A DNA stretch of 64,000 nt from Thermoanaerobaculia bacterium (lineage in GTDB: Bacteria; Acidobacteriota; Thermoanaerobaculia; UBA5066): NCBI GenBank assembly GCA_038245905.1, contig JBBRRY010000004.1:32001-96000 (forward strand). The letters are read 5' to 3'. Shown here one piece after another: positions 3,758 through 56,807 of this stretch. Both the position numbers and the translations under genes were made by a program. The stretch's first letter is position 1. Every line of letters begins with the position of its first letter. The notes under the pieces were generated by a model, which saw nothing but the letters and a program-made list of their open reading frames with translations, made no database searches and was not told the DNA's origin.

Positions 3758-5392
3758 TTATGCGTGGACGCCCGGCGCCTCGTGTCCCGTCCGCGATACC
3801 CACTCGACGTACGAGCCGCCGTAGAGGTGGGGCGGGTCGGAGGAGTCGTTCTCGGAGAGGACGAGGACACGGTTCGAGAGCCCGCGGAGGAAGGCGCGGT
3901 CGTGGGACACGAAGAGCATCGTCCCCTCGAATTTCGAGAGCGCCTCGACGAGCATCTCCTTCGTCGCGAGGTCGAGGTGGTTCGTGGGCTCGTCGAGGAC
4001 GAGGAAGTTCGGCGGGTCGAAGAGCATGCGCGCCATGACGAGGCGCGATTTCTCGCCGCCCGAGAGGAAGCGGACCTTCTTGTCCACGTCGTCGCCGGAA
4101 AACTGAAAGGCACCGACGAGCGCGCGGAGGGTGCCGATTCCGGCAGCGGGGAAGTCCCTCTGAACCTGCTCGAGCACGGTCCGCTCGGGGTCGAGGACGT
4201 CGAGCGCCTGCTGCGAGAAGTAACCCATCCGGACGCTCGCGCCGACGCGTACGCTCCCGCCGTCCGGCGGCAGCATGCCCGCGACCATCTTCAGGAGCGT
4301 GGTCTTTCCGGCGCCGTTGACGCCCATCACGCACCAGCGCTCCCCCCGGCGGATGAGGAAGTCGAAGCCGTCGTAGAGGTGCCGCGCGCCGTAGCCCTTC
4401 GAGAGCTTCTCGAGGACCGCGACGTCGTCGCCCGAGCGGGCCGGCGCCTTGAAGTCGAACCGCACGACCGCGCGCTTCTTCGGCAGCTCGATCGTCTCGA
4501 TCTTCTCGAGCTTCTTGACGCGGCTCTGCACCTGCGCGGCCTTCGAAGCATGAGTTTGGAAGCGCTCGATGAACCGGTTCTCCTTCGCGAGCATCGCCTG
4601 CTGGCGCGCGAACGCCGCCTCGCGCTGGGACTCGCGTTGGAGGCGCTCCCTCTCGTAGAAGTCGTAGTTGCCGGAGTAGGTCACGGTCTCGCCGGCGTCG
4701 ATCTCGACGACTTTCGTGACGACGCGGTTCATGAAATCCCGGTCGTGGCAGGTCATGAGGAGAGAGCCCGGGTAACCCTTGAGGTACCCCTCGAGCCAGA
4801 GGATCGACTCGATGTCGAGGTGGTTCGTCGGCTCGTCCATGAGGAGGACGTCGGGCCTGCCGAGGAGCACCTTCGCCATCGCGACCCGCATCTTCCAGCC
4901 GCCGGAGAGAGCGCCGACGTCTCCGTCGATGCGCTCGTCGTCGAAGCCGAGGCCGTGAAGAACTTCCCGGGCGCGGGCCTCCAGCTCGTAGCCGCCGTGC
5001 GTCTGGTACTCGGACTGAACTTCGCCGAACCGCTCCAGGATCCTCTCCATCTCGTTCGAGCGAGCCGGATCCCCGAGCGCGTGCTCGAGGTCGATCAGCT
5101 CGTGGTGGAGGTCGCCGAGCCGCCCGCTCCCGGCGATCGCCTCGTCGAGGACGGGCCGGCCTGCCATCTCGTCGATCTCCTGCTTGAAGTAGCCGATCGA
5201 GAGTTTCTTCGGGACGGAGACGTCGCCGTCATCGGCGTGCTCCTCACCCGTGATGAGCCGGAAGATCGTCGTCTTGCCGGCCCCGTTCGGGCCGACGAGG
5301 CCGATCTTCTCGCCGTCGTTGAGCTGGAAGGAGGCGTCCACGAACAGGACCTGGCGGCCGTACTGCTTGTTGATGCCCGAGAGCGCGATCAT
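3758..5392 (-). CDS. ABC-F family ATP-binding protein
   Basis: Two NBDs (GPNGAGKTT/LSGGW/DEPTNHLD and GVNGAGKTT/LSGGE/DEPTNHLD) with no TM domain. Confidence 0.95.
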   Translation of the reverse strand: MIALSGINKQYGRQVLFVDASFQLNDGEKIGLVGPNGAGKTTIFRLITGEEHADDGDVSVPKKLSIGYFKQEIDEMAGRPVLDEAIAGSGRLGDLHHELIDLEHALGDPARSNEMERILERFGEVQSEYQTHGGYELEARAREVLHGLGFDDERIDGDVGALSGGWKMRVAMAKVLLGRPDVLLMDEPTNHLDIESILWLEGYLKGYPGSLLMTCHDRDFMNRVVTKVVEIDAGETVTYSGNYDFYERERLQRESQREAAFARQQAMLAKENRFIERFQTHASKAAQVQSRVKKLEKIETIELPKKRAVVRFDFKAPARSGDDVAVLEKLSKGYGARHLYDGFDFLIRRGERWCVMGVNGAGKTTLLKMVAGMLPPDGGSVRVGASVRMGYFSQQALDVLDPERTVLEQVQRDFPAAGIGTLRALVGAFQFSGDDVDKKVRFLSGGEKSRLVMARMLFDPPNFLVLDEPTNHLDLATKEMLVEALSKFEGTMLFVSHDRAFLRGLSNRVLVLSENDSSDPPHLYGGSYVEWVSRTGHEAPGVHA

Positions 5393-5432
5393 GGGCGGCG
5401 GACGATAGCAGGACCGCGCGAGCGGGAGCGGA

Positions 5433-5870
5433 TTATTCGATCATCGCGATCCGGCGGGCGTGGCGGCCACCGCCGGCCGCGGGGTCGAAAGGCGTCGCGA
5501 GAAATATCCGCACGATCGCGAGCGCCATCTCCTCGGTGATCATCCTCTCCCCGAGCGACAGGACATTCGCGTCGTTGTGCTCGCGGCACGCCTTCGCGGT
5601 GGCCTCGTTCCAGCAGAGCGCGCAGCGCACGCCCTTCACCTTGTTCGCGACGATGGCCTCCCCGTTTCCTGACCCGCCGAGAACGATGCCGCGCTCGCAC
5701 GCGCCGCTCGCGACGGCCTCGGCCGCCGGCCGGACGAAGAGCGGGTAGTCGACCATCTCCGGGGAGAACGTGCCGCAGTCCTGGACGGTGTGCCCCATCT
5801 CGAGAACGGCGGCCTTGATCACCTCTTTGTAAGCGTATCCGGCGTGATCGGAGCCAAGTGCGATCTTCAT
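5433..5870 (-). CDS. rpiB: Ribose-5-phosphate isomerase B
   Basis: MKIALGSDHAG, VDYP, GGSGNGE, ANKVKGVR, HNDANVL. Confidence 0.95.
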   Translation of the reverse strand: MKIALGSDHAGYAYKEVIKAAVLEMGHTVQDCGTFSPEMVDYPLFVRPAAEAVASGACERGIVLGGSGNGEAIVANKVKGVRCALCWNEATAKACREHNDANVLSLGERMITEEMALAIVRIFLATPFDPAAGGGRHARRIAMIE

Positions 5871-9782: not shown

Positions 9783-10556
9783 ATGAACCCGCGCGAATAC
9801 GAAATCATGTTCGCCCGCGAAGATGCCTACTGGTGGTATCGCGGAATGCGGTGCGTGACCCGGGCGTTCGCGCCGGGCCTCTTCGCGGCGCCTGCCGGGT
9901 CCCGGTTGCTCGACGCGGGCTGCGGTACAGGCCGCAACCTTCAGGAGCTCGAGGCCGCGGGAGGACTTGCGGTGGGCGTCGATGTTTCTCTGCGCGCGCT
10001 CGGCCTCGCGCGGCGGAGAGGCCGGACCCGGCTCGTGTGCGGCTCGATCGAGGCTCTGCCGTTTCGCGGCGGCGCGTTCCTCGGCGCGCTCTCGCGCGAC
10101 GTCCTCTACATGGTGCCCCGCCAGGAGGCCGCCCTGCGGGAGATCGCGCGAGCCCTCGAGGAAGGCGGGACGCTCGCGATCTCGTCACCCGCATTCGTCG
10201 CGCTCGCGGGCGCGCACGACGTCGCGGTCAGCGCCCTGAGACGCTACACCGCGAAAGGCCTTGAGAAGCTGCTGAAAGACGCCGGACTCTCGGTGATCCG
10301 CACGAGCTACGCCAATCTCTTCCTGGCAGGCCCTATTTGGATTCTTAGAAAGGTGACGAGAGCGAAGGCGCGCGGCCGCCCTTCCACGGAAGTCGCCTCC
10401 GAATTCCCTCTTTCTCCCAAACCATTCGAAGAAATCTTCTTCTTTCTTCTGTCTTTCGAAGCGCGCCTCGTTGCCCGCGTGCGCCTCCCGTTCGGGTCGA
10501 CGGTCTTCGTCCTGGCCGAAAAGCCCGTTCAGGGCACGAGCGTCGCGGCGAAATAG
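9783..10556 (+). CDS. Class I SAM-dependent methyltransferase
   Basis: EDAYWWYRG, LLDAGCGTG motif I, LPFGST C-terminus. Confidence 0.88.
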   Translation: MNPREYEIMFAREDAYWWYRGMRCVTRAFAPGLFAAPAGSRLLDAGCGTGRNLQELEAAGGLAVGVDVSLRALGLARRRGRTRLVCGSIEALPFRGGAFLGALSRDVLYMVPRQEAALREIARALEEGGTLAISSPAFVALAGAHDVAVSALRRYTAKGLEKLLKDAGLSVIRTSYANLFLAGPIWILRKVTRAKARGRPSTEVASEFPLSPKPFEEIFFFLLSFEARLVARVRLPFGSTVFVLAEKPVQGTSVAAK

Positions 10557-13525
10557 CTGCCGTCGTTCGTCCGGTTGTCGACGAGCGTTGCCCAGGCCGT
10601 CGCGGAGCCGCCGTCGACGACGTCGACGAGCATCGACGCCTGTTCGAGCGGCGGCGTCTGCATTTCGGCGAAGACGTCGTTCCACTGGACGGCTTCGCCC
10701 GGGGAGAGCGTCAGCGCGCGGACGGCGACCACGGCGCCCGACGCCGAGACGAGAGAGACTCGGAGACGCGTCACGAGGCCTCCCGTTTCGACGAATCCGA
10801 CGTTCGTGCGCTCCCGGGGGGAGCCGGAGAGGAACGCAAGCGCGAGCGTGCGCCCCGGAACGGCGTCGGACGCGCCGGAAACGGGATCGATCGCGACGCC
10901 GTAGCTCCTCGCTCCGTCGAGCGTGTACGTGCGGCTGGAGGCGAAGAGAGCGGCGCCGTCGAGCGCGGTCAGACGCAGCGCGCCCGAGGTGTCGGAAGCG
11001 GGCGCGAAGAGCTGCCCGAGGGCGTCGTCGAGGAAACGCGTTTCGCCGCCGGCGAGCGTCACGAGGACCGGAGAAAAGGCGCCGCCCGACGCCGGCGTGA
11101 AGGTCGCCCTGATGCGCGCCGGCGCGGCTCCCGCGTTCGCAAGCTTCAGATCGGTGACGTAACGCACGCCGAGCTGGCCGTTGGACCGCGCGACCGCCGG
11201 GAGGAGGAGATCCGCGCCGGAGACGGCTGCTCCTGAGAACGCGCCGTCGTTCGAGGAGTCGTCGACGGGCGTCGCGAAGGCTGCGATGCGCCCGGCCCCC
11301 GAAAGAACGCGCACTTCGAAGCGGTCCGAGGCGCCGGGCGGGATGCCGGCGGCCGTGTAAATGTCGTTGACCTGCACGAGACCGCCGCCGGGCACCGATT
11401 CCGGCAGGACGGCACGAACGGCACCGTGCGCGTCCTTGACGACGATCTCGGCGGCGACCTCGCTCCCGGTGACCTCGGTGAGCCCGATGTTCACGCGGAA
11501 ACCCGTGCTCGCGAACACGGGGACGAGCGTGAGGGTCGTGCCCGCGCCGGCCGCCGAGGAGGGCGGCATGGCGGGAATCGAGAGACCGAAGGCGCCTCCG
11601 CGCACCGCCGTCGTGGCCGTATGGGACGCGGCGACGACGGAATCGGCCGCCGAGAGAAACAGCGGCCCGTAGCCCTCCGTCCGGAACGCGTTGCCGAGCA
11701 CGTCGTCGAGTGCCCGGGTCGAGCGGGGCGGCAAGGTGAACGACACGGTGCGCGCCGGTCCTCCCGAAGCGGGCTGGAACCTTAGCGCGACCACACGGGA
11801 GCTCACGGCGTCGGTATTGAACAGCCGGACGTCCGTCGTGAAGGAGGCGCCGAGCTTTCCCATCACGTGCGCCGAGGTGGGGATCACCGAAGTCGTGCCC
11901 GGGAACGGGACGTCGGGGGGCAACGCCTCGGGCTCGATGACGATCGCCCAGGAGACCACGCGCCCGGCGCCGGCCCCGGGCGTGTCGTCGATTACCCGGA
12001 GCCGCCACGGACCCGCGGCTGGCTTTCCCGCGAAACTGGAGAGGGGGAGGAGCGGATCGAGAGTGCGCCCGAAGACCTCCCGGAGCGCTTCGCCTGGATG
12101 GCCGCCGTGGTTCATGAGGAGAACGTTCGTGCCGTCCGGACCCGTCAGCGACACGACGAGCTGCGTGGGATCGGGATGGTCGATCGAGAGCGCGACGGTC
12201 ACCGTGGAAACGCGGCCGAGGAGCGCGGACACGACCGCCTCGCAGACGAGCGTCTCGCCGGTCCCGTCCGGAATCGAGCTGCCACCGCAGGAGCCGACGG
12301 GTGTCGTGGCGTCGAGGGCCGCGGAGAGATCGAGGCGCGGCGTGAACCGGCCCGTGCGATTGTCCAGGACCGGAACGCCCGTCGCGCGCAGAAGGTCGAA
12401 CGCGAGCGCGGGATCGGCGAGCGGCCGGGCCTGACGCGCGAGCAGCACGGCGCCGGTGGCGGCGGGTGCGGCGGCCGACGTCCCGGAGAAGATCGCGGTG
12501 CGCCCGCCGCCGGCCGCGGTCGTCGTCCACCCGACGCCCGGCGCGAGAACCGAAAGGCCGGTTCCCGACGTGCTCGCGCAGGGGACGACGTCCGGCCCGG
12601 TCAGGGCGTCCTCGCACGAAGCGGATCCACCCCACGCGACCGAACCGGAAGACGCCGAGTACACCATTCCCACCGCGGCGACGTTCGAGAAGCACGCGGG
12701 CCACGGCAGTCCCGACGTCTTGCCGTCGTTCCCGGCGGCCGCCACGACCGCGAGCCCCGCCGCGCGCGCGGCCGCGAACGTGGATGCGCCGGCCGGGTCC
12801 TCCGTGTCGCAGAACGCGCGGTGCGACGTGTCGTCGGCGAGACTGAGGTTGATCGCCTCGACGTTCCAGAGGTCGCGGTTCGAAAGCACCCAGTCCACGG
12901 ACGCGAGGACGTCGGAGGCGCGCGCGCTTCGGCATCCGTCGCGCAGGCTGAAGACCTTCAAAACGACGAGGCCGGCATCCGGCGCGATTCCCTGCGGACC
13001 CGCGATGACTCCGGCCACCTCCGTTCCGTGGCCGCTGCAGTCCGCGAGATTCCCGTCGTTGTCGGCGAAGTTCCAGCCCGGCCAGACCGAGCCCGCTCTC
13101 GGCTTGAGGTCGGGATGCGCCACATCGATTCCGCTGTCCACGACGGCGACGCTTCGGCCCCGCCCGGTCACGCCGAGGCCGAGGAGCCGGTCCGCTCCGA
13201 TTTGTGCGGTTCCGATCTGACCCGCGGGCCGCACGAGGCGGTCGTAGCCGACGTGGACGACGTCCGGCCGGAGCGCGAGGGCGGCGATCTCGGCTGCGGT
13301 CGCCCAGCCCGCGATGACCGGGACGTTCGTGAGGCGGCGCACGACGGGGAAGCCCGCGGGCTCTGCCATCCCTCTCGCCCTGAGCGAGACGACGACCGGA
13401 ATCCGTGCCTCGCCGGCTCTCACGTGCTCCGCGATCTCCTTCGACACGACAGCCGCCCGCGCGGAAGCGGGTGCGAGAGCGAGCGCGGCGGCCACCGCGG
13501 ACAGGAGGAGCGGATTGGCGTTCAT
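10529..13525 (-). CDS. Secreted S8 (subtilisin-like) peptidase with P-domain and two C-terminal repeats
   Basis: Signal peptide; catalytic triad VVDSG, GHGTEVAG, SGTSAAAP; P-domain (LTGPDGT...GPWRLRVID). Confidence 0.9.
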   Translation of the reverse strand: MNANPLLLSAVAAALALAPASARAAVVSKEIAEHVRAGEARIPVVVSLRARGMAEPAGFPVVRRLTNVPVIAGWATAAEIAALALRPDVVHVGYDRLVRPAGQIGTAQIGADRLLGLGVTGRGRSVAVVDSGIDVAHPDLKPRAGSVWPGWNFADNDGNLADCSGHGTEVAGVIAGPQGIAPDAGLVVLKVFSLRDGCRSARASDVLASVDWVLSNRDLWNVEAINLSLADDTSHRAFCDTEDPAGASTFAAARAAGLAVVAAAGNDGKTSGLPWPACFSNVAAVGMVYSASSGSVAWGGSASCEDALTGPDVVPCASTSGTGLSVLAPGVGWTTTAAGGGRTAIFSGTSAAAPAATGAVLLARQARPLADPALAFDLLRATGVPVLDNRTGRFTPRLDLSAALDATTPVGSCGGSSIPDGTGETLVCEAVVSALLGRVSTVTVALSIDHPDPTQLVVSLTGPDGTNVLLMNHGGHPGEALREVFGRTLDPLLPLSSFAGKPAAGPWRLRVIDDTPGAGAGRVVSWAIVIEPEALPPDVPFPGTTSVIPTSAHVMGKLGASFTTDVRLFNTDAVSSRVVALRFQPASGGPARTVSFTLPPRSTRALDDVLGNAFRTEGYGPLFLSAADSVVAASHTATTAVRGGAFGLSIPAMPPSSAAGAGTTLTLVPVFASTGFRVNIGLTEVTGSEVAAEIVVKDAHGAVRAVLPESVPGGGLVQVNDIYTAAGIPPGASDRFEVRVLSGAGRIAAFATPVDDSSNDGAFSGAAVSGADLLLPAVARSNGQLGVRYVTDLKLANAGAAPARIRATFTPASGGAFSPVLVTLAGGETRFLDDALGQLFAPASDTSGALRLTALDGAALFASSRTYTLDGARSYGVAIDPVSGASDAVPGRTLALAFLSGSPRERTNVGFVETGGLVTRLRVSLVSASGAVVAVRALTLSPGEAVQWNDVFAEMQTPPLEQASMLVDVVDGGSATAWATLVDNRTNDGSYFAATLVP

Positions 13526-19289: not shown

Positions 19290-22200
19290 ATGCCTTTGAA
19301 GGCGCTCCGGCAGTGGACGATTCCGCGCCGCGATCTCGCAGCGGGTGGCTCGGCGCTCGTGCGGCTTTCTCATCCCCTCCTTCCGGCTTTCGTCTCGGCG
19401 TGCTCGGGCCCGCACGGCCTCGTCCTCGGCCTCGAGGGCGCGCGCCCCGTGCCGCTCGGCCGGCTCGACGCTCGTGCCCGCCGTGCGTACCTCGTGAGGC
19501 TCGGCTCGCTCGCGGGATTCCTGTCGTTTCACGGTCTCGGCATCGCCGCGGAAGACGTCCCTCTTCTCGGCGCGCGCGAGGGCGATGCGGACCGGCCGGC
19601 GCTGGGTGCGCCCCCGGCCGCCGCGTGGCGCACCGTGCCTTCCGCGCTCCTGGTCGCGGGCGCGGCCCTGCGACTCGCCGGACGGGCCGTCAAAGGCGAC
19701 GACGCGGACGCGCTGCGCCGTTCGATCCAGAGCGCACTCAATCGCTCCCTGCCGCGCGACGTCACGGAAGACGTTCTTTCCGCGCTCCGCGCCGCGGATG
19801 CGCGCGCGCGTCCGGAGGCGCTCGTCTCGGAGCTCGCCCGGCGGGGCGCCGTGGGACGCGCCGTGTCGCGCGATCTGCTCGGCCTCGCGCTTCCGGCCGT
19901 GACGATCCCGCCCGCTCATCCGGCCCGGCCCGCCGTGGCGGTCGGGCCCGCCGCTCTCTGGCTCGCGCGCGGAGCCGCGCGCCGGGACGAGCCGCCCGCG
20001 TTCCTGGAGTGCGGATCTCTCTCGGCCCTCGAGGAAGGCGGTGCGCTCCGCCGGCTCGCGCGCGCTCTCTCCGGGGATCCGCGAGCGGCGCTCCTCGAGG
20101 CGCTCGCGGACGGGACGCGCGTTCCACGCGCAACTGACGGACCTCCCGTCGCTCTCGTCGCGATCTCTCTCGACCGCTGGGACGGGCGTTCGCGCCGGGC
20201 GTTCGAGGAAGAGCTTCCCGCGTTCGGGTTCCGGCTCTTTGCCACGCGTGCCGCGAGCCTGCGTCTCTGGGAGGAGGCGCCGCTCATCACCTTCCGGATG
20301 AGCCGCGGCGACGCGGCGTCGATTCTCTGGCTTCCCTTTGCGTCCCTCAACGACACCGTGGACGCGTGGCGCGAGGCGGAAGACGTGGCCGGAGCGACGG
20401 ACGCGGGCCGCTTTCTCGAGGTCGCACACGGACTCGCGGCGCGGTTCGATTCCGCGGAAGGGCGCCTCGGTCCCGCTAGGCCGCGGCCGGCCGCTTCGCA
20501 CCGTCCGGATCCCGTGCTCGAAGCGGCCTCTCTTCTCGCCAGCGGATTTGGGGCCGCGGAGGCCGCCGAGGCCGCGGACGTGCCCCTCCGAAATGCGCAA
20601 GAGGCTCTCGCGGCGGCCGCGGAAGCGGGAATCGTCGTACCGTGCGACGCGAACGCGTACTCGTTTCGGGACGACGAAGAACGTGGGAGGGTGGCGGCGC
20701 GCGTGCCCGCTTCGGCTCGCAGGGACGCGGTGGCGCGCCTCGCGAAAGCGGGACTCCCGGACCTCACGCCGTCGCGACTCGCCGTCGCGTCGCTCGCGCG
20801 CGCGAATGCCGGCGACCTTGCGGCGGCTCGCAGCGTCCTCGACGCAGCCGCCCTGAACGCCGACTCCTCCCTCGCCGCGGAGCTTCTCTCTCGCGCGCCC
20901 CGAACAGAGCCCGATCTGGGGCGGCCGCTTCTCGCGGTTTGCGTCCTTCAGAGGGCGGGCCGCCCGGAACGCGCGCGCGCCTTGGCGGGGCGCATCACTG
21001 CCGAGGCGATCGCCAGCAGCCCGCTCGACGAGCGGCTCGCGACGGCCCGGGCGCTCGTCCGCCTGCGCGAGGAGGAACGCGCCCTCGTCCTCTGCCCGGG
21101 AGGCGCACCCGAGGAGGATGTCGCGCGCGCCTGGGTCCTCGTCGAATCCCGGCGTGACGGTGAGGCCAGGCGCGCGCTCGAGCGCGCTCTGGTTGGTCTC
21201 GCGGGGGCCCCCGTAGCGTTCCGCCTCCTCGCGAAGCTGCTCGGCGCGGAGCTTCACGAACGCGCGTCCGAATATGCCGCCGCGGGCGCCGCTCTCGTCG
21301 AGGCGGAGGCGCTGCTGCCTCTCGTCTCCGAGGAGGGGTTCGCGCGCGAGATGGCTCGAACGGCGGGCTACCTCGCGAACGACCTCGGCCGCACCGACGA
21401 GGCCCTCGCGCTCTTCCGGCGCGCGGAAACCCTCTCGAGGAGCGGCCTCGAGCGGGCGGACGCGGCTTACGACGTCGCGCACGCGGCTCTCGACGGCGGT
21501 CGCCTCGATGTCGCGGCGCGTGAGCTGGACGCCGCGCTGGGCCTATACGCGGCGGGCCGGCATGAAGAGCGCTATCTCTCCGCGCTCGGGAACCGCATCG
21601 ACCTCCTCCTTCGCATGGGCGACTTCCCGGCTGCCCGAAGCGTGCTCGAACGGGTTCTCGCCCACGAGCGTGCGAGCGGGCGACGACACCAGATCCTGTT
21701 CGCGGTTCCGAGCCTGCAGGAGCTCGCGCTTCTCGAGGGCGACGACGGCGAGGCTTCGGCAGCGTTCCGCGAGGCGGAGGAGCGCGGGGCGGCGGACCCG
21801 TCGCACCCGGCCTGGCGGGAGATTCTTCTGCTCGAAGCCGAGCGAGTACTTGCGGCGCCGGATCCGGAGGCGGCGCTCACGCTCCTCGCGCGCGCGAGGG
21901 AGATTCCGGACAACCGCTCCCGCACGGAGGCGCGCAGGCTTCGGCTCGTTGCCTCTGCGTCGCGCGACGTCGGCCGAGCGCCCCGTGAGCAACCGGCGGC
22001 CTTTACTCTCGACGAGCGTGTCCTTCTCGACGCGGAGATTGCTTTCGCCTCCGGACGCGCGGCGCCGGATGCCGCGAGTGCGGCTCTCGAACGCCTGGCG
22101 GCGTCGGGCGCCGGGGCCGGAGCCGCGATCCGGCGCGTTCTCGAGTGGTCCGGCCGCTTCCCGGCGTTCTTCGCGACGTCGGCGGCCGGTCCGCTCCTGA

Positions 22201-23237
22201 GACTCGCGGGGCGCGTCGCGGCGCGGGCCGGCCTCTCTCGCGCCGAGGAGCGCTTTTCGCGGCTGCTCGAGCACGGCGCGCCACGCGAGCCTTCGCAGGT
22301 GCCGATCACGTCGCCTCCAGCCGTCGTCGCCGAGGATGCCGCCACGCAGGATCTGTTCGCGAAGGCGGCCCGAGTGGCCCGGTCGACGATTTCGGTTCTC
22401 CTTCTCGGGGAGAGTGGCACCGGGAAGGAGATCGTTGCGCACGAGCTCCATCGCCTCTCGGGCCGGCGAGGACGTTTCCTTGCGGTCAACGTCGCGGCGC
22501 TTCCGGGCACGCTCGCGGAGGCGGAGTTGTTCGGCCACGCGCGAGGCGCTTTCACGGGTGCCGACCGGGATCGCCGGGGCCTCGTCGAAGAGTCGTCCGG
22601 TGGAACGCTATTCCTCGACGAGATCGGCGACCTGCCCCTCGCCCTGCAGGGCAAGCTCCTCCGGGTCCTCCAGGAAGGCGAGGTGAGGCGGCTGGGCGAG
22701 ACCGCCGTGAGGCGCGTCGACCTTCGCGTGCTGGCGGCGACTCACCGCCCTCTCAAGGCGATGGCCGAGGCGGGCTCGTTCCGGATCGATCTGTACTTCC
22801 GGCTGGCCGGGCTCGAGCTCGAGCTGGCTCCTCTGCGGGAGCGTCCGAAGGATCTCGCGCGGCTCGTCGAGGTGGCTCTTGCAGGGCGCGCGACGCTGGC
22901 GCACGAGGCGTCGGCCGCCCTCAAAGCGTGGCCGTGGCCGGGAAACGTACGCGAGCTCCTAGCCGCCATCGAGGCCGCCGTTGCGCTTTCGGCGCCCGGA
23001 CGGGTCATCGCCCTCGAGCACCTTCCCCGCGGCCTGCGCGAGAGGACTCGGGCGCCCGCGGGCGCACGGTCCTATCAGGACGCGCTCCGGGCGGCGCGTC
23101 TCGCGGCCGTCGGCGGGGCGCTCGAGGCGGCCGGGGGTAACCGGACCCGCGCGGCCCGCGCGCTCGGAATCTCGCGTCAGTCGTTGCTCTATGAGATGAA
23201 GAAGCTGGAGATCCATGCGGCGCGCGGCGGACGCTAG
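19290..23237 (+). CDS. Large sigma54-dependent activator with long helical/TPR-like N-terminus
   Basis: GESGTGKE, ELFGHARGAFTGA, LFLDEIG, WPGNVREL, Fis-type HTH (NRTRAARALGISRQSL). Confidence 0.9.
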   Translation: MPLKALRQWTIPRRDLAAGGSALVRLSHPLLPAFVSACSGPHGLVLGLEGARPVPLGRLDARARRAYLVRLGSLAGFLSFHGLGIAAEDVPLLGAREGDADRPALGAPPAAAWRTVPSALLVAGAALRLAGRAVKGDDADALRRSIQSALNRSLPRDVTEDVLSALRAADARARPEALVSELARRGAVGRAVSRDLLGLALPAVTIPPAHPARPAVAVGPAALWLARGAARRDEPPAFLECGSLSALEEGGALRRLARALSGDPRAALLEALADGTRVPRATDGPPVALVAISLDRWDGRSRRAFEEELPAFGFRLFATRAASLRLWEEAPLITFRMSRGDAASILWLPFASLNDTVDAWREAEDVAGATDAGRFLEVAHGLAARFDSAEGRLGPARPRPAASHRPDPVLEAASLLASGFGAAEAAEAADVPLRNAQEALAAAAEAGIVVPCDANAYSFRDDEERGRVAARVPASARRDAVARLAKAGLPDLTPSRLAVASLARANAGDLAAARSVLDAAALNADSSLAAELLSRAPRTEPDLGRPLLAVCVLQRAGRPERARALAGRITAEAIASSPLDERLATARALVRLREEERALVLCPGGAPEEDVARAWVLVESRRDGEARRALERALVGLAGAPVAFRLLAKLLGAELHERASEYAAAGAALVEAEALLPLVSEEGFAREMARTAGYLANDLGRTDEALALFRRAETLSRSGLERADAAYDVAHAALDGGRLDVAARELDAALGLYAAGRHEERYLSALGNRIDLLLRMGDFPAARSVLERVLAHERASGRRHQILFAVPSLQELALLEGDDGEASAAFREAEERGAADPSHPAWREILLLEAERVLAAPDPEAALTLLARAREIPDNRSRTEARRLRLVASASRDVGRAPREQPAAFTLDERVLLDAEIAFASGRAAPDAASAALERLAASGAGAGAAIRRVLEWSGRFPAFFATSAAGPLLRLAGRVAARAGLSRAEERFSRLLEHGAPREPSQVPITSPPAVVAEDAATQDLFAKAARVARSTISVLLLGESGTGKEIVAHELHRLSGRRGRFLAVNVAALPGTLAEAELFGHARGAFTGADRDRRGLVEESSGGTLFLDEIGDLPLALQGKLLRVLQEGEVRRLGETAVRRVDLRVLAATHRPLKAMAEAGSFRIDLYFRLAGLELELAPLRERPKDLARLVEVALAGRATLAHEASAALKAWPWPGNVRELLAAIEAAVALSAPGRVIALEHLPRGLRERTRAPAGARSYQDALRAARLAAVGGALEAAGGNRTRAARALGISRQSLLYEMKKLEIHAARGGR

Positions 23238-35158: not shown

Positions 35159-35998
35159 TCAGGGGTTCGTCTGGCGCCTGAGCGCGTCGAACTTCAGGAG
35201 GTCGGCCAGGAACTTCGGAAGGATCGCGAGTGGAAGCTGCGTGGCCTTGTCGGACTTCGCGGCGGCGGGATTGTCGTGGACTTCGAAGAAGTAGCCGTCC
35301 ACGCCGACCGACGCCGCCGCCCGGACGAGAGCAGGAGCGTATTCGCGCGAGCCGCCTGTCTCTTTGCCGAGGCTGCCCGGAAGCTGAAGGGAGTGCGTCG
35401 CGTCGTAGATCACGGGAACGCCGAGCGACCGCATCATGGGGAGGCCTCGGAAGTCTACGACGAGGTTGTGATACCCGAAGCTCGTGCCGCGCTCGCAAAG
35501 CATGACGTTCGAGTTCCCGGCGGAATGGCACTTGTCGACGATTTGCTTGCAGTCGTCGGGCGCCAGAAACTGTCCCTTCTTGACGTTCACGGCCTTCTTC
35601 GTGGCGGCCGCCGCCATGATGAGGTCGGTCTGCCGGCAGAGGAACGCGGGGATCTGGAGGACGTCGGCCACTTCGGCCACGAGCGCGCAGTGCTCGGGGT
35701 CGTGGACGTCGGTCAGGACAGGCAGGTCGGTCTTCTCCTTCACCTCCGAGAGGATCGCGAGCCCCTTCTCGATGCCAGGCCCCCGGAAGCTGGCCCCGGC
35801 GGAACGGTTCGCCTTGTCGAACGAGGATTTGTAGACGAGCCGGTCGGCGACCCCGGCGTCCGTGAAGACCTTTTTCAGCTCTTTCGCCATTTTCAGGGCG
35901 TGCGCCCGCGACTCGATGACGCACGGGCCCGCAAAAAAGACGGGGCGACAGCGGTCGCCGACGGAAAGGTGCGGCGTGATCGAGGCGAAGACGCGCAT
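35159..35998 (-). CDS. kdsA: KDO 8-phosphate synthase
   Basis: AGPCVIES, KSSFDKANRS, QIPAFLCRQT, KKGQF, ERGTSFGY, DATHS. Confidence 0.96.
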   Translation of the reverse strand: MRVFASITPHLSVGDRCRPVFFAGPCVIESRAHALKMAKELKKVFTDAGVADRLVYKSSFDKANRSAGASFRGPGIEKGLAILSEVKEKTDLPVLTDVHDPEHCALVAEVADVLQIPAFLCRQTDLIMAAAATKKAVNVKKGQFLAPDDCKQIVDKCHSAGNSNVMLCERGTSFGYHNLVVDFRGLPMMRSLGVPVIYDATHSLQLPGSLGKETGGSREYAPALVRAAASVGVDGYFFEVHDNPAAAKSDKATQLPLAILPKFLADLLKFDALRRQTNP

Positions 35999-36035
35999 GT
36001 GCAGGCCAGTCTAGCGTGACCGCGGGAGCCGCCGC

Positions 36036-36782
36036 TCAGGGCTTGTGCGCGACGAGGTAGTGGTCCATCCGGTCGGCGCGCCGCTGGACGTCCGCCAGGC
36101 CTTCGGCGGCAAGCCAGGCCTCGACGTCGGAAAGGGCGTATCGCTCGTGGACGCCCGGCGAGACGGTGTCGAAGTACTCGAGGATCTCGCCGGGCGGCGC
36201 CACGGCGCGGAGGGCCTCGACCTTCTCGGGAAAAGTAAGGGGTGCGACGCGCGCCCGCCAGGCCTCGACGCCGGCGACCTCCTGCTCGTCAGTCGGACAG
36301 CCCGGCCTTGGCCGGCCGTAGAGCATCAGGAAGAGGACGCCTCCGCGGCGGAGGGAGGCCACCAGCCGCGCGAGCGAACCGCGGACGTCGCCGGTGTGGT
36401 GAAGCACCCCGAAGCTCCAGACAAGGTCGAAGGACGCGCCCACGGCCAGCGGGGCGAGGAGGTCCGCGGCGAGCGCCCCGCGGAAACCGGGGAGGCCCGT
36501 GCAGGCCGCCCGCGTCGCCAGGAGGGCGGGGAGCGAGCGGTCGACCGCGAGGACACGCGCCCCGAGCCGGCAGAGCGCCCAGGTGTGACGGCCGCATCCG
36601 CAGCCCGCGTCGAGCGCGTCGCGCCCCGCGAACCACTCCGGAGGCCGGCCGACCCACTCGGCCACGAGCCCGGGCAGCTCCTCGCGGAACTCCGGGCTCG
36701 CGAGCGACCACCGGTTCTGGGGGAGCCGCGACCACTGGTAGTCGAAGCTCGCGCGCGTCTGGAGGACGTCCAGATCGGTCAT
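36036..36782 (-). CDS. Class I SAM-dependent methyltransferase
   Basis: SFDYQW, LDAGCGCGR motif I, FDLVWSFGVLHHT; starts 19 nt after the precursor stop. Confidence 0.85.
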   Translation of the reverse strand: MTDLDVLQTRASFDYQWSRLPQNRWSLASPEFREELPGLVAEWVGRPPEWFAGRDALDAGCGCGRHTWALCRLGARVLAVDRSLPALLATRAACTGLPGFRGALAADLLAPLAVGASFDLVWSFGVLHHTGDVRGSLARLVASLRRGGVLFLMLYGRPRPGCPTDEQEVAGVEAWRARVAPLTFPEKVEALRAVAPPGEILEYFDTVSPGVHERYALSDVEAWLAAEGLADVQRRADRMDHYLVAHKP

Positions 36783-36801
36783 CGCGGCGTCGGCGGGGAG
36801 G

Positions 36802-37164
36802 TCAGCCGTGGCCGAGCTGCTTGTTCGGACCGGCGAAGCCGCCGCCGAGCTGCTGCGCGCCACCGAGCTGCTGCATGCCTCCGAGCTGGGCGCCTCCGAG
36901 CTGCTGGTGGCTCATGCCGCCCGCCACCTTGTCGAGGTCCTGGTCGACGAGCTCACCGCCAGGGAGAGGCGGCAGAACGAAATGGCGCGTGCCCGCCGTG
37001 TCCTCGACGAAGCGCACGCTCACGCCCTCCGAAAGCCGGATTCCGACCCCGGCGAGCGCCTCGTGCGGCGCGGAGAGGAGGCGGGCGCGAAACGCGGGGT
37101 CCGATGCCGCCTTCGATTCGATGGACGCGAGCGCTTCGGGGGAGATCACGTCACGAAGGCCCAT
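36802..37164 (-). CDS. NHLP (nitrile hydratase-like leader peptide) RiPP precursor
   Basis: KAASDPAFRARLL..P, VRFVED, HFVLP, ELVDQDLDKVAGG double-glycine site; 37 aa core; strong AAGGAGG RBS. Confidence 0.88.
   Translation of the reverse strand: MGLRDVISPEALASIESKAASDPAFRARLLSAPHEALAGVGIRLSEGVSVRFVEDTAGTRHFVLPPLPGGELVDQDLDKVAGGMSHQQLGGAQLGGMQQLGGAQQLGGGFAGPNKQLGHG
36811..36906 (-). repeat. Coding tandem repeat, (Q)QLGG units
   Basis: CCGAGCTG on the + strand at 36812, 36845, 36863, 36881 and 36896. Confidence 0.85.
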
Positions 37165-37285
37165 TTCGTCCTCCTTGATTCCGGGTCGGGTCGGCTCGCA
37201 ATTGAGACTCTATCAGGTTCGGAAGCGGAACCGCCCCACTCCCCCGGAAGGAGCCCGCCGGCCTCAGAATGGCCTGAGAGGGAAC

Positions 37286-37777
37286 ATGTCCATCCGCATT
37301 CTCGTGACCGGCGGGACCTTCGACAAGGAATACGACGAGTTGACGGGCCGCCTCTATTTCAAGGACACGCACATCCAGGAGATGCTGCGGCTCGGCCGCT
37401 GCCGCGTGCCGGTGGCCGTCGAGACGGTGATGATGAAGGACAGCCTCGAGATGATTCCCGGGGATCGCGAGACGATCGCCTGGCGCTGCCGGGAGGCCGC
37501 GGAAAGCTGGATCGTCGTCACGCACGGCACCGACACGATGGTCGAGACGGCGGCGATCCTCGCCGAGGCCGAGACGGGGAAGACGATCGTCCTGACGGGC
37601 GCCATGGTGCCGTGGGCGTTCGGCAGCTCCGACGGCCTCTTCAACCTCGGGAGCGCATTGTCGTTCGTCCAGGTCCTACCGCCGGGCGTCTACGTCGCCA
37701 TGAACGGCCGCTGCTTTCCGTGGGACGACGTCCGGAAGGACCGCGAGCAAGGAGTCTTCGAGAGGATCGAACGGTAG
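37286..37777 (+). CDS. Short asparaginase-domain protein
   Basis: TGGTFDK, HGTDTM, LTGAM, SDGLFNLG; N-terminal domain only. Confidence 0.85.
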   Translation: MSIRILVTGGTFDKEYDELTGRLYFKDTHIQEMLRLGRCRVPVAVETVMMKDSLEMIPGDRETIAWRCREAAESWIVVTHGTDTMVETAAILAEAETGKTIVLTGAMVPWAFGSSDGLFNLGSALSFVQVLPPGVYVAMNGRCFPWDDVRKDREQGVFERIER

Positions 37778-53828: not shown

Positions 53829-56807
53829 CTAGAAGATCTTCAGGATGTTCAGCGAAAGGACGACGCCCGTCTGCCCGCGGTTGCGGCCGGAGACGGGCGT
53901 TCCGGCATCGAGCCGGATCAGCGTCGCCCACGGCCCGGCGAACTCGCCCGAGATTCCCGCGCCGCTGAAGTAGGCCCAGTCGAGGCCCGCGGCCCGGTCC
54001 CTCACGCGCGCATCCTCGTAGATCGCCTCGAGGCGGAAGGCGCTCCCGATGACATAACCGTACGCGACCTTCGACGTGACCGCTTCCTCGGCACGCAGGG
54101 CACCCGACCGGAAGCCGCGCAGCGACGTTCCGCCGAAGAAGCCGAAGGTGTACTTCGAGAAGCGATCCGTGTTGTCGGAGCCGACGTACCCGAGCGACGC
54201 GCGCACGCGCTGGAAGCGCGGCAGGTGGAAGTCTTTCTGAATCTCGGCGCCCCAGGTCGTGAAGACGTCCTTGCCCGGGTCGTAGTCCGGGTTACCCGCG
54301 AAGCCCCACGGATCCCACTGCGACCTCTTGTTCCACGCCCACCGGCCCGTAACCGCCCACCCGCGCCAGTCCCAGGCGAGCTGGCCCTCGAGGCGTGTGA
54401 GCCAGTGGTCCGATGGAATCGCGAACGCCGATGATGTTTCGACGTCGTCGACCGCGAAGTCCCGGTGCGACTCGGTGACCGTCCCCGTGAGCTTGATGTG
54501 GCGCGCGATCGGGACGCCCGCCTTGAACGCGGCCGCGAATGACCGGCTCTTCACCCGCTGCGCCTTGTCTTCCTCGCCGGAGACGAAGAGCGCGTCCGTG
54601 CCCCGAAGCGCGATGCCGAAGACGTCGACGCCGACGTCGACTGGCGAGCCGAAGAGCCTCGGCTGGCTCCACGAGGCCGCGAGCAGGACGCCGCCGAAGA
54701 GGACCTGGAACTGGTCATGGCGTTTGCTCGCGTCGAGGTCGATCCAGTAGACGCCGAGGAGGGGGAGCGGATAGTCGTATGCGCCATCGTAGAAAAGGCC
54801 GCCGAGCCCGAAGAGCTTGCCGTGTTTCGCGTCCTCCGTGACGCGGCGGCCGCCGTCCTTCGTCTTCTCGAGGTAACGAACACCCTTCTCGGTCTCACGC
54901 ACCATCGTGTCCTTCGACGCGAAAGTCTCTTCGCGCGCCGCGCGGAAGGCGGGATCGTCGAGCCGGATGTCGGTGAGCACGCTTTCGCGCTCGATCACGG
55001 TCGTGCGCGAAAACGTTTTGAGGATCCACTGGCCCGTCGTGCGCGTCGGGAGGCGCAGCGGCGGCCCGCCGTCGGGTGCGGGCACATCCGTGAAGTCGGC
55101 CGTCTCGTCCACGGCCTGAATCTCGGCCGTGAGGTTCAGCTGCCGCGTCCGGACGCGGACGGCCGCGAACCCGTCTCGCGCGATCCACACGCGACCCGCG
55201 TACACGGGCTTGTCCGTCACGGCGACGCGCGGCTCGAAGTCGAGCGCCCAGCAGGGAATGCCCCGCACGGTCTCTTCGCCGACGAGCGCGTAGCGGTATG
55301 TGTCGTCGAGCGTGAGGGCGAGCGGCATGTCCGAGACCTTCTCGGGCTGCAGGAGCGGGAGCTCGGGGAGCTTTTTTCCCTTCCAGCGGACGCCGTTGAA
55401 GTACGCGTCGTGCCACGCCCAGTCGAAGCCCGAGCCCCTCTCGTAGAAGAACGGCCCGGCGAGCGTGAGGTCGATCGTGTTGCCGAGGTTCGCGAAGCGA
55501 AAGCGCATCGAGAGCGAGTTCGTCGCCGAGAGCGTCTTCCAGCGCGCATCGCGGGCCGCCCGCCACGCCTGGTGCTGCGCGAGAATCTCCTCCGCCGTGA
55601 TCCCGCGCGCGGCGGCGACCCCGACCGCGGCCTTCGGGGCCTCGGCCGGGGCTTTCTCGCGCGCCGTGAGGCGCACGGCGAGGGGACCATTCGCGAGCGA
55701 GAGGGTGAGGCGTACGGGGACCGCGCCTGCAGGGATCTCGAGCTTCCTCGAGGCCCCCGTCGCGAGCTCGAAAATCTCCGCCAAGCCGTACGGCGTCGCA
55801 TCCAGGGTGACCGTCACGGGCCCCGCCGGAGCGGGCGCGCCGCCCTTCGTGCCGGGAACGAGGACGACACCGCCCAGGTCGGCGCCCGAGACGACGCGGA
55901 ATGCGTCGCGCGGCGTTCCGTCGGACGCCGCGACGGACACGGCGCGGGTGTCGGCGCCGAAGTCGCCCGCGACCATGCGCGCGAAGCGCTCGAGCGTCGC
56001 GTCTTCGGCGGCCGACCACGCGGGTGTCGCGACGACGAACGGAAGGTTCTCGGACGCGAACCGCGCGGAAGCAGCGATGAGCGCGCCGGGCGTGCGGACG
56101 GAGGCACCGAGATCGACGAGCCCCGGCTTGCCGAATGCGACGGCGTCGATCGCTTTTCGGACCTCAGACGCATCAACCTGTGCGATTTCGGTCACGCCGA
56201 CCATGTCGAGATAGGCCGTGTTTTCTTCTGAAAGGAGGAGACGGTCGGCGGGTGCGATGAGCGGGCCCGAAGCGTCGGGTGCGGCCGCGAACGCAATCAG
56301 GGCGTGGGGAGCTGCGGCGCGCGCGCCCGCGGCCACCTTTCTAAGAAAATACGCCCGTGCCTTGGGGTCGCCGGAAACGGGCGTCGCGAAGTCGATGGAT
56401 ACGAGATCCGCCGTCCTTGCCTCTCTCAGAATCTCTCCGATCCCCGGCCAGAGGTCGTCCACGTTTGCCGCTTCGGCGGCTCGTACATCGGCCGGCACGG
56501 CCACATTGGGCAGCGCGAGCGCGAGCCCCCAGCGCCAGCCGGCGGTGTGGGCGTGCTCCGCGAGCTCGCGGACGCCGGCGATCGCCGCCGGCCTGTCCAC
56601 GCCCCGCGCGTCGGGGTCGAGTCGCAGCAAGAGGCCCGGAGCGTTCGGCGAATGGGCGGCGATCGGCAGGCCCGAGATGCGGGCGATCCTCGGGTCGCCG
56701 GGCGAGACCGCGAGCCACGGCGCCGCGTATGGGCGGGGCGTCACCCCCGCCGCGGCGTGAGAGAGGAGCGCCCCGAGGAGAGCGGCAAGAGCCCGGTGCT
56801 GCGTCAC
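53829..56807 (-). CDS. Large secreted / outer-membrane protein with probable C-terminal beta-barrel
   Basis: Signal peptide; alternating aromatic strands; ends SLNILKIF. Confidence 0.7.
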   Translation of the reverse strand: MTQHRALAALLGALLSHAAAGVTPRPYAAPWLAVSPGDPRIARISGLPIAAHSPNAPGLLLRLDPDARGVDRPAAIAGVRELAEHAHTAGWRWGLALALPNVAVPADVRAAEAANVDDLWPGIGEILREARTADLVSIDFATPVSGDPKARAYFLRKVAAGARAAAPHALIAFAAAPDASGPLIAPADRLLLSEENTAYLDMVGVTEIAQVDASEVRKAIDAVAFGKPGLVDLGASVRTPGALIAASARFASENLPFVVATPAWSAAEDATLERFARMVAGDFGADTRAVSVAASDGTPRDAFRVVSGADLGGVVLVPGTKGGAPAPAGPVTVTLDATPYGLAEIFELATGASRKLEIPAGAVPVRLTLSLANGPLAVRLTAREKAPAEAPKAAVGVAAARGITAEEILAQHQAWRAARDARWKTLSATNSLSMRFRFANLGNTIDLTLAGPFFYERGSGFDWAWHDAYFNGVRWKGKKLPELPLLQPEKVSDMPLALTLDDTYRYALVGEETVRGIPCWALDFEPRVAVTDKPVYAGRVWIARDGFAAVRVRTRQLNLTAEIQAVDETADFTDVPAPDGGPPLRLPTRTTGQWILKTFSRTTVIERESVLTDIRLDDPAFRAAREETFASKDTMVRETEKGVRYLEKTKDGGRRVTEDAKHGKLFGLGGLFYDGAYDYPLPLLGVYWIDLDASKRHDQFQVLFGGVLLAASWSQPRLFGSPVDVGVDVFGIALRGTDALFVSGEEDKAQRVKSRSFAAAFKAGVPIARHIKLTGTVTESHRDFAVDDVETSSAFAIPSDHWLTRLEGQLAWDWRGWAVTGRWAWNKRSQWDPWGFAGNPDYDPGKDVFTTWGAEIQKDFHLPRFQRVRASLGYVGSDNTDRFSKYTFGFFGGTSLRGFRSGALRAEEAVTSKVAYGYVIGSAFRLEAIYEDARVRDRAAGLDWAYFSGAGISGEFAGPWATLIRLDAGTPVSGRNRGQTGVVLSLNILKIF

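Follow-up and report, generated by a model that had tools for sequence, protein, structure and literature searches.

The stretch of Thermoanaerobaculia DNA analysed here (the window: all 64,000 nucleotides (nt) from position 32,001 to 96,000 of contig JBBRRY010000004.1) encodes a peptide precursor with an NHLP leader, followed on the same strand by a class I S-adenosylmethionine (SAM)-dependent methyltransferase. In several Acidobacteria of soils and sediments the two genes are kept side by side as a unit, their precursors share a motif in the core peptide, Q-[L/I/M]-G, and an NHLP-type exporter is present in the genome. Read from the sequence, the pair points to what may be an undescribed kind of methylated ribosomal peptide. 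The literature searched, which did not cover subscription journals, held no description of an NHLP precursor-methyltransferase pair or of a Gln-methylated peptide that is made on the ribosome and modified after translation (RiPP), in keeping with the undescribed status that the initial annotation of this DNA had given to the pair. We propose that the two genes may be a self-contained RiPP module in which the methyltransferase methylates the core and export is supplied in trans, a proposal that we regard as evenly balanced between right and wrong. That the methyltransferase acts on the peptide at all is probable; that Gln is the methyl acceptor is a good deal less so, and we put it forward tentatively.

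The precursor, its core and the methyltransferase

The precursor gene (36802-37164, minus strand; ATG at 37164, TGA at 36802-36804) encodes 120 residues, of which residues 1-83 (36916-37164) are an NHLP leader ending in a double-glycine cleavage motif. The TIGR03793 hidden Markov model (HMM), a check that the initial annotation had suggested, scored the precursor at 61.2 bits against a cut-off of 50.9. Residues 12-83 aligned with model positions 6-77 of 77, and the match stopped exactly at residue 83, the second Gly of the leader's terminal Gly-Gly. G82 and G83 were invariant in the precursor alignment, and the sequence past them varied. The final 13 residues of the leader agreed with the NHLP/bacteriocin cleavage logo displayed in PMC2887384, having acidic residues (positions 1, 4 and 6), Leu (2 and 7), Val (10) and Gly-Gly (12-13) in their expected places. 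The precursor has all three features that define the NHLP family, namely the model score, the Gly-Gly motif with a variable core behind it, and exporter genes in the same genome. The open reading frame (ORF), its translation and the TIGR03793 score agreed with the earlier division into an 83-residue leader and a 37-residue core.

The core itself, placed by translation and alignment (residues 84-120; 36805-36915, minus strand), is Gly/Gln-rich. As the initial annotation had it, the 37 residues contain four QLGG units and one QLGH, a single Ser, and neither Cys nor Thr. The DNA encoding the QLGG units is a tandem repeat (36840-36906), for which Tandem Repeats Finder reported a period of 18 with 3.9 copies (score 85) and a period of 15 with 3.3 copies. 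Repeat copy number varies, the core of the closest relative (G019) having six QLGG units.

Translation of the precursor is served by a Shine-Dalgarno sequence read as AAGGAGG (37170-37176, minus strand) 5 nt upstream of the ATG, and the strong ribosome-binding site described earlier therefore stands. Similar purine-rich sites lay 5' of the precursor start in four of the five relatives examined (L029, L030, L032 and L052); in L031, none was evident 5' of its three candidate precursor starts. The precursor promoter presumably lies in the 121-nt divergent intergenic region (37165-37285), judging from the gene positions, and a sigma-70 consensus scan of the precursor region returned no promoter site.

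The methyltransferase gene (36036-36782, minus strand) encodes 248 residues from an ATG at 36782, a start that agrees with those of its homologues. It follows the precursor stop codon after a 19-nt spacer (36783-36801, minus strand) in which the terminator scan found no terminator-like site, and so lies where it had first been placed. The protein matched the class I Pfam models Methyltransf_11, Methyltransf_12 and Methyltransf_25 (50.1 bits for Methyltransf_11), and an NCBIfam scan returned no model above its cut-off. An AlphaFold2 model of the enzyme had a mean pLDDT of 91.5. All details of the initial description that could be checked proved right.

Conservation of the pair as a unit

Besides the window genome (G000), the pair was found in G019, G010, G041, G042, G043 and G424. 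In all seven genomes found with the linked methyltransferase clade, an NHLP precursor lay directly upstream of the methyltransferase, the spacers in the relatives being 0-27 nt. All nine relatives' precursors tested passed TIGR03793 (54.9-70.5 bits), the G424 precursor lying outside this test. The linked loci were exactly those of the five methyltransferases at least 50% identical to that of the window, together with G424, which was added later. When a leader HMM of our own build was run over all six-frame ORFs of 78 methyltransferase loci, it matched five loci and had no match in the other 73. The outgroup consisted of 49 full-length relatives of the methyltransferase (31-47% identity) from species-representative genomes; no NHLP leader was found within 4 kb of any of these unlinked enzymes. 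The reverse test, on 19 further NHLP loci of Acidobacteria, found no linked-type methyltransferase within 4 kb of any of them.

The initial annotation had cautioned that the link may be coincidental, on the ground that this methyltransferase resembles ones found in polysaccharide loci. The wider family does occur in such loci, but members of the window enzyme's clade were always found behind an NHLP precursor. Since the adjacency holds in seven of seven genomes and in five different gene contexts, against none of 49 distant relatives, the link is very unlikely to be coincidental. The neighbourhood analysis of homologues, which had been suggested as a check, thus came out differently at the two depths, with linkage in every genome found with the close clade and in none of the 49 loci beyond it.

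This division was also seen in a maximum-likelihood tree obtained by a quick search. Six linked methyltransferases and 20 metagenome proteins fell on one side of a branch (SH-aLRT 97, length 0.38) and the 49 unlinked enzymes on the other. The tree was computed without the frameshifted G424 enzyme, and the metagenome members (P0002-P0020 and P0024) were placed by protein sequence, their gene context not having been seen; a further metagenome protein, P0001, is identical to the G019 methyltransferase (L029).

The seven loci occupy five contexts. The pair lies between kdsA and an asparaginase-like gene in G000 and G019, the only two genomes in which kdsA is adjacent, and between DeaD and an asparaginase-like gene in G010. 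In G041, it has PadR and an FtsX-type permease on one side and TP_methylase and a cyclase on the other; in G042 and G043, it stands between genes for a cyclase, an anti-sigma factor and an ECF sigma factor and a gene for a large PSCyt/DUF1553 protein. The context in G424 is different again.

The distribution of the pair is sparse. Within the genus of the window genome, the methyltransferase and a QLGG-type precursor occurred together in three of 25 genomes. A scan of 401 genomes from the order of G042 added one locus, that of G424, and a scan of genome contigs with QQMG-type precursors gave, among the matches listed, the two known loci only. Scanning metagenome contigs with the methyltransferase alignment returned no close relative, the generic SAM-motif pattern dominating the result. 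Two combinations of precursor and methyltransferase matches, P0115 with P0007 and P0117 with P0006, are only suggestive.

Within the genus, the history of the pair could be read from the loci that lack it. The pair is bounded in the window by a kdsA-like gene (DAHP_synth_1, 217 bits in Pfam; 35159-35998, minus strand) and by an asparaginase-N-terminal-like gene (90.9 bits in Pfam; 37286-37777, plus strand), both outside the module. In nine of the ten genus loci without the pair, the distance between the starts of kdsA and of the asparaginase-like gene is about 40 nt (507 nt in the tenth), and in G000 and G019 the 1.25-kb pair occupies this gap. The pair thus behaves as a single 1.25-kb insertion or deletion, and the Kdo genes next to it are incidental. 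The asparaginase-like gene, considered as a partner enzyme, was rejected because 27 of the 29 genomes of the genus have it, with or without the pair, which makes it core. In the window, kdsA was left only 37 nt downstream of the methyltransferase on the same strand (35999-36035); with the pair inserted before it, kdsA would have to be transcribed either by read-through from the precursor promoter or from one within the methyltransferase gene.

Three further observations concern individual loci. In G041 (L031), a TP_methylase gene (4671-5525, plus strand; PF00590, 54.1 bits) comes immediately after the class I methyltransferase gene and, as the ORFs were called, overlaps it, so that two methyltransferases of different classes stand behind a 13-residue core; this arrangement fits a peptide-methylation cluster. 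A "putative cyclase" of family PF04199 is encoded on the opposite strand within 1-2.5 kb of the pair in G041, G042 and G043 (L031 5655-6431, L032 1230-2087 and L052 453-1301). Two of the three were tested, at 142-149 bits, and no such gene is near the pair in the window or in G424. Finally, the G424 methyltransferase (L230 6368-7130, contig C1) is split between two frames at about residue 137 behind an intact precursor, either through a frameshift or through a long-read assembly error.

Acceptor residue, export and alternative readings

We then compared 11 cores, whose residues were counted by eye in the alignments. Core length runs from 11 to 50 residues. The short cores of G041, G042, G043, P0123 and P0124 carry a single Q-L-G or Q-M-G, the window core has five units and the G019 core seven, the Q-L-G unit being multiplied as QLGG in the window's genus. 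In G010-type cores, both Q-L-G-G and H-L-G-G units occur, and the C-terminal residues are K-Q-L-G. Q-[L/I/M]-G was found in 10 of the 11 tallied cores, and P0123 and P0124 also carry one Q-L-G. Ala, Gly and Gln were the residues present in every tallied core, which leaves Gln as the only shared side chain that could be methylated; each of Cys, Ser/Thr, Asp/Glu, Lys, Arg and His was absent from at least one. The comparison of core sequences thus favours Gln as the likely acceptor.

Repetition of the unit was also seen in ten metagenome precursors with a Vicinamibacteria-type leader (P0125-P0134), nine of which have two to five QQMG-type units and one of which, P0130, has one. Their gene context was not seen. 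If these precursors are methyltransferase-linked as well, two lineages would each have multiplied the unit on their own, and this would suggest that the unit itself is the functional element. The Pfam accession PF27893.1 is precomputed on eight of the ten (all except P0126 and P0133), and Pfam curators may therefore already have delimited this precursor group.

In the mechanism that we envisage, the precursor would be translated from its strong ribosome-binding site, and the same transcript would also yield the methyltransferase. Within the cytoplasm, this enzyme would move methyl groups from SAM to the Q-[L/I/M]-G units of the core, with the Gln side-chain amide nitrogen as the favoured acceptor. 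An ABC transporter with a C39 domain, encoded on another contig (C64) together with an HlyD protein and a second ABC protein as partners, would then cut after the leader's Gly-Gly and export a linear, Gly/Gln-rich, methylated 37-mer. We infer this cleavage and export, as well as any bioactivity of the product.

The genome contains what such export would need. Its only C39 peptidase domain lies within a TIGR03796 transporter on contig C64 (7 kb), flanked by genes of TIGR03797 and of the HlyD-type TIGR03794, the latter cut by the contig end. All three NHLM genes scored above cut-off (1079.9 bits for TIGR03796, 893.8 for TIGR03797 and 200.9 for TIGR03794). Because one complete NHLP export and cleavage system is thus present on another contig, processing in trans, as first suspected, is plausible. 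The search of the genome for transporters and further precursors, likewise suggested at the outset, gave this one system and four NHLP precursors at three loci, and no YcaO was found genome-wide. A TIGR03796-type gene was present in the five other pair genomes tested, above cut-off in four and at 850.6 bits against 853.3 in the fifth. Among 41 relatives, the transporter was restricted to G000, G010, G015 and G019, the same four that have NHLP genes. As these genomes are close kin, the co-occurrence is a matter of consistency, not of statistics; a similar co-distribution is reported in PMC2887384, where the NHLP family was defined.

The remaining precursors of the window genome are of other kinds. 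Two tandem NHLP precursors on contig C79 (1844-2821; L001/L002) have Gly-rich cores with a conserved "...GGQNTRVEFN..." tail, and comparable loci are found in G010 (C190, L204), G015 (C94, L020) and G019 (C114, L027). The tandem precursors come after an ORF of about 500 residues whose N-terminus looks HAD hydrolase-like by eye and which had no NCBIfam match in the frame tried. In G010, one contig carries both these precursors and the NHLM transporter, about 10 kb apart. These C79-type precursors are probably the primary clientele of the transporter. The fourth precursor, an orphan on contig C28 (27893-28228, minus strand; 56.4 bits for TIGR03793), has a 24-residue Thr/Gly/Arg-rich core and adjoins what reads as a putative VapB/VapC (PIN) pair.

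Several observations weigh against the proposed mechanism; those on the nearest folds, the NPPY-type motif and the amide chemistry bear on Gln in particular. The pair genomes are few and all Acidobacteriota, and are therefore not independent samples. Several units of the G010-type cores have H-L-G-G in place of Q-L-G-G, and in G424, where the methyltransferase is split, the core reads Q-L-K. Polysaccharide-type genes (for glycosyltransferases, sugar aminotransferases, epimerases, O-antigen ABC exporters and the like) stood beside 35 of the 49 unlinked methyltransferases, a count that, like the others for these neighbours, rests on 100 of 126 neighbour ORFs. The nearest solved folds found by Foldseek were those of sugar and small-molecule methyltransferases (AtmM/RebM, Rv2258c), at TM-scores of only 0.5-0.6, and no recognisable leader-binding domain was found in the window enzyme. 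N5-Gln methyltransferases are characterised by an NPPY-type motif that follows strand 4, and the translation, inspected by eye, contains no NPPY- or DPPY-like string; the PrmC model TIGR03534 gave 11.8 bits against a cut-off of 199.1. An amide nitrogen is, moreover, a poor nucleophile. Among RiPP enzymes, the one well-studied amide N-methyltransferase is AerE. This proteusin enzyme depends on a Tyr-Asp pair together with a metal ion (PMC9060474), and no such device could be made out in the window methyltransferase.

The PDB sequence profile and Foldseek gave generic class I matches only, and a complex prediction with SAM and the precursor, at 0.01 against a mark of 0.32, was uninformative either way. 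An N-terminal motif and a YFD..SP motif are invariant both in the linked clade and in the relatives from polysaccharide loci, and four positions (S26, A28, G102 and A105) are fixed differently in the linked clade.

The most novel form of our proposal is a new RiPP class. Its L-Gln side chains would be N-methylated in Q-[L/I/M]-G units by a single class I methyltransferase whose origin lies among polysaccharide-modifying enzymes, and two acidobacterial lineages would each have raised the number of units per core on their own, from one up to five to seven. A modification that is otherwise known from release factors and from ribosomal protein uL3 would then have its first use in a natural product. 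Taken as a whole, this claim is doubtful, and slightly more so than the assignment of Gln alone.

The same module might instead act at another site, a backbone amide in or near the Q-L-G unit or the C-terminal carboxylate, which we consider unlikely. Peptide termini are methylated by class I enzymes of known RiPP pathways, and two of these were among the matches of the window enzyme (LahSB at Foldseek rank 11, the cypemycin N-terminal methyltransferase at E 2.7e-12 in the PDB profile search), but the matches span the common Rossmann core only. Backbone methylation by an FkbM-type enzyme in a proteusin is described in PMC11285071, and the amide-activating motifs known for Gln/Asn methyltransferases were not found in the window enzyme. 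As for the ends of the peptide, what follows the last Q-L-G is different from lineage to lineage (none, HG, RT, RRGA and others), so the C-terminus is not conserved. Methylation of the N-terminus would require the leader to be off inside the cell; C39 cleavage is coupled to export, and because the leader is removed at that stage, N-terminal methylation is unlikely.

Unlikely to a similar degree is a methyltransferase tied to the peptide without modifying it, which would provide self-protection by methylating the producer's target or a surface polysaccharide. Thiopeptide producers are protected by rRNA methyltransferases, and an immunity gene often follows a bacteriocin precursor. The window enzyme adjoins Kdo-pathway genes, its closest solved folds are sugar O-methyltransferases, and its relatives, apart from their polysaccharide neighbours, stood beside AsnB-like amidotransferases in 15 of 49 cases. 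This last association, interpreted partly from recall, could hint at an ancestry in amide or amidine N-methylation, and is a lead only. Yet kdsA is not adjacent in five of the seven pair loci, and in G424 the seemingly broken gene is the methyltransferase, with the precursor intact. An unmodified linear peptide of 11 residues would be an unlikely toxin to need dedicated immunity. In addition, the core motif is co-conserved with the methyltransferase clade and the remaining core residues vary freely, as would be expected of a site that an enzyme recognises. The last alternative, an ordinary polysaccharide or lipopolysaccharide methyltransferase that came by chance to stand beside an orphan NHLP gene, draws on the homology to the wider family and on the kdsA, kdsD-like and HAD genes nearby, and is highly improbable in the face of the seven of seven adjacency over five contexts, the 0-27 nt spacers, the indel as a unit, the monophyletic clade and the 49 outgroup loci without a leader.

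In the wider window, the pair has housekeeping genes around it. The same-strand genes downstream of it encode the kdsA-like product, a GntR regulator with an ABC transporter, a kdsD-like product, a HAD hydrolase, NrdR, Hsp20 and Lon; the asparaginase-N-terminal-like gene and a DeaD helicase gene lie upstream and divergent. Pfam scans of the 42 ORFs retained by a filter on third-position GC content (GC3), which leave short stretches without a filtered ORF uncovered, found no radical SAM, YcaO, LanM or C39 peptidase, in agreement with the initial annotation. Directly upstream of recA, a 992-residue ORF (53829-56807, minus strand) with a GC3 of 0.88 and gene-like codon bias had no Pfam match at E 1e-6. 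Far from the pair lie a 998-residue S8 subtilase with a proprotein-convertase P-domain (10529-13525, minus strand) and a 1315-residue sigma-54 activator with about 1000 unassigned N-terminal residues (19290-23237, plus strand), to neither of which a link from the pair was found.

Comparison with known systems

Peptide methylation alters protease stability, conformation and membrane passage, and enzymes that methylate genetically encoded peptides are therefore wanted as tools. If our proposal is true, an enzyme of 248 residues that reads a three-residue unit, possibly repeatedly, on an L-peptide without prior epimerisation would make for a simpler arrangement than that of the proteusins. The pair also offers a testable function for one of many orphan NHLP precursors, is a case in which a methyltransferase lineage of the polysaccharide type has acquired a peptide as partner, and comes from a phylum, Acidobacteriota, whose natural products are barely explored. 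Should the methyltransferase not modify the peptide, the pair would be a candidate for a different type of immunity.

The closest described framework is that of the NHLP/Nif11 precursors and their three-gene NHLM export system (Haft et al. 2010, PMC2887384), with which the pair shares the TIGR03793 leader, the Gly-Gly, a hypervariable core and TIGR03794, TIGR03796 and TIGR03797 genes elsewhere in the genome. The NHLP cores so far described abound in Cys, Ser and Thr and go together with cyclodehydratases or LanM, whereas the window core contains no Cys or Thr and its only dedicated partner is a class I methyltransferase.

An NHLP-type leader and a class I SAM-dependent methyltransferase are also found in the proteusin systems of PoyE and AerE, which N-methylate side chains (PMC9060474, PMC11285071), and by analogy a repeated methylation of side-chain carboxamides is conceivable here. 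AerE, according to PMC9060474, acts only on D-Asn produced by a radical SAM epimerase and has about 350 residues or more with an N-terminal helical subdomain; the candidate residue in the window core is L-Gln and the enzyme has 248 residues. AerE was not among the best 60 of 180 PDB profile matches of the window methyltransferase, nor among the Foldseek ranks listed. A 2024 review of RiPP methyltransferases (PMC11285071) contains zero occurrences of glutamine or Gln. Proteusins of the polytheonamide/aeronamide type have a radical SAM epimerase, B12 radical SAM C-methyltransferases or both beside the precursor. As a search confined to the window found no radical SAM domain in its 42 scanned ORFs, a proteusin in the polytheonamide sense was rejected.

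Other families of enzymes differ from that of the window in class or in score. Split borosins resemble the pair in their minimal layout of a precursor and one methyltransferase. Borosin methyltransferases belong to the TP_methylase class, their precursor docks through a domain of its own, and they N-methylate the backbone. The window methyltransferase, in contrast, matches class I Pfam models only, and its precursor has an NHLP-type leader; a borosin was therefore rejected, the additional TP_methylase gene being confined to G041. The model of the daptide-type RiPP methyltransferases (NF041820) gave the window enzyme 26 bits against a cut-off of 175, and this type was likewise rejected, as was a PrmC/PrmB-type N5-glutamine methyltransferase on the TIGR03534 score and the lack of an NPPY or DPPY string noted above.

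LahSB and CypM, which methylate the termini of RiPPs, share the class I fold and were both among the matches, with LahSB and CypM alike limited to the Rossmann core (TM-score about 0.49), and the core termini in the present family are not conserved. Homology over the full length was found with the unnamed class I family of polysaccharide and O-antigen loci, from which the linked clade is separate and which had no NHLP neighbour in its 49 loci. Unmodified (class II) double-glycine bacteriocins have leaders of about 15-30 residues and an immunity gene, and no tailoring enzyme. With a leader of 83 residues of the NHLP type and a methyltransferase as the adjacent gene, the pair described here is set apart from these.

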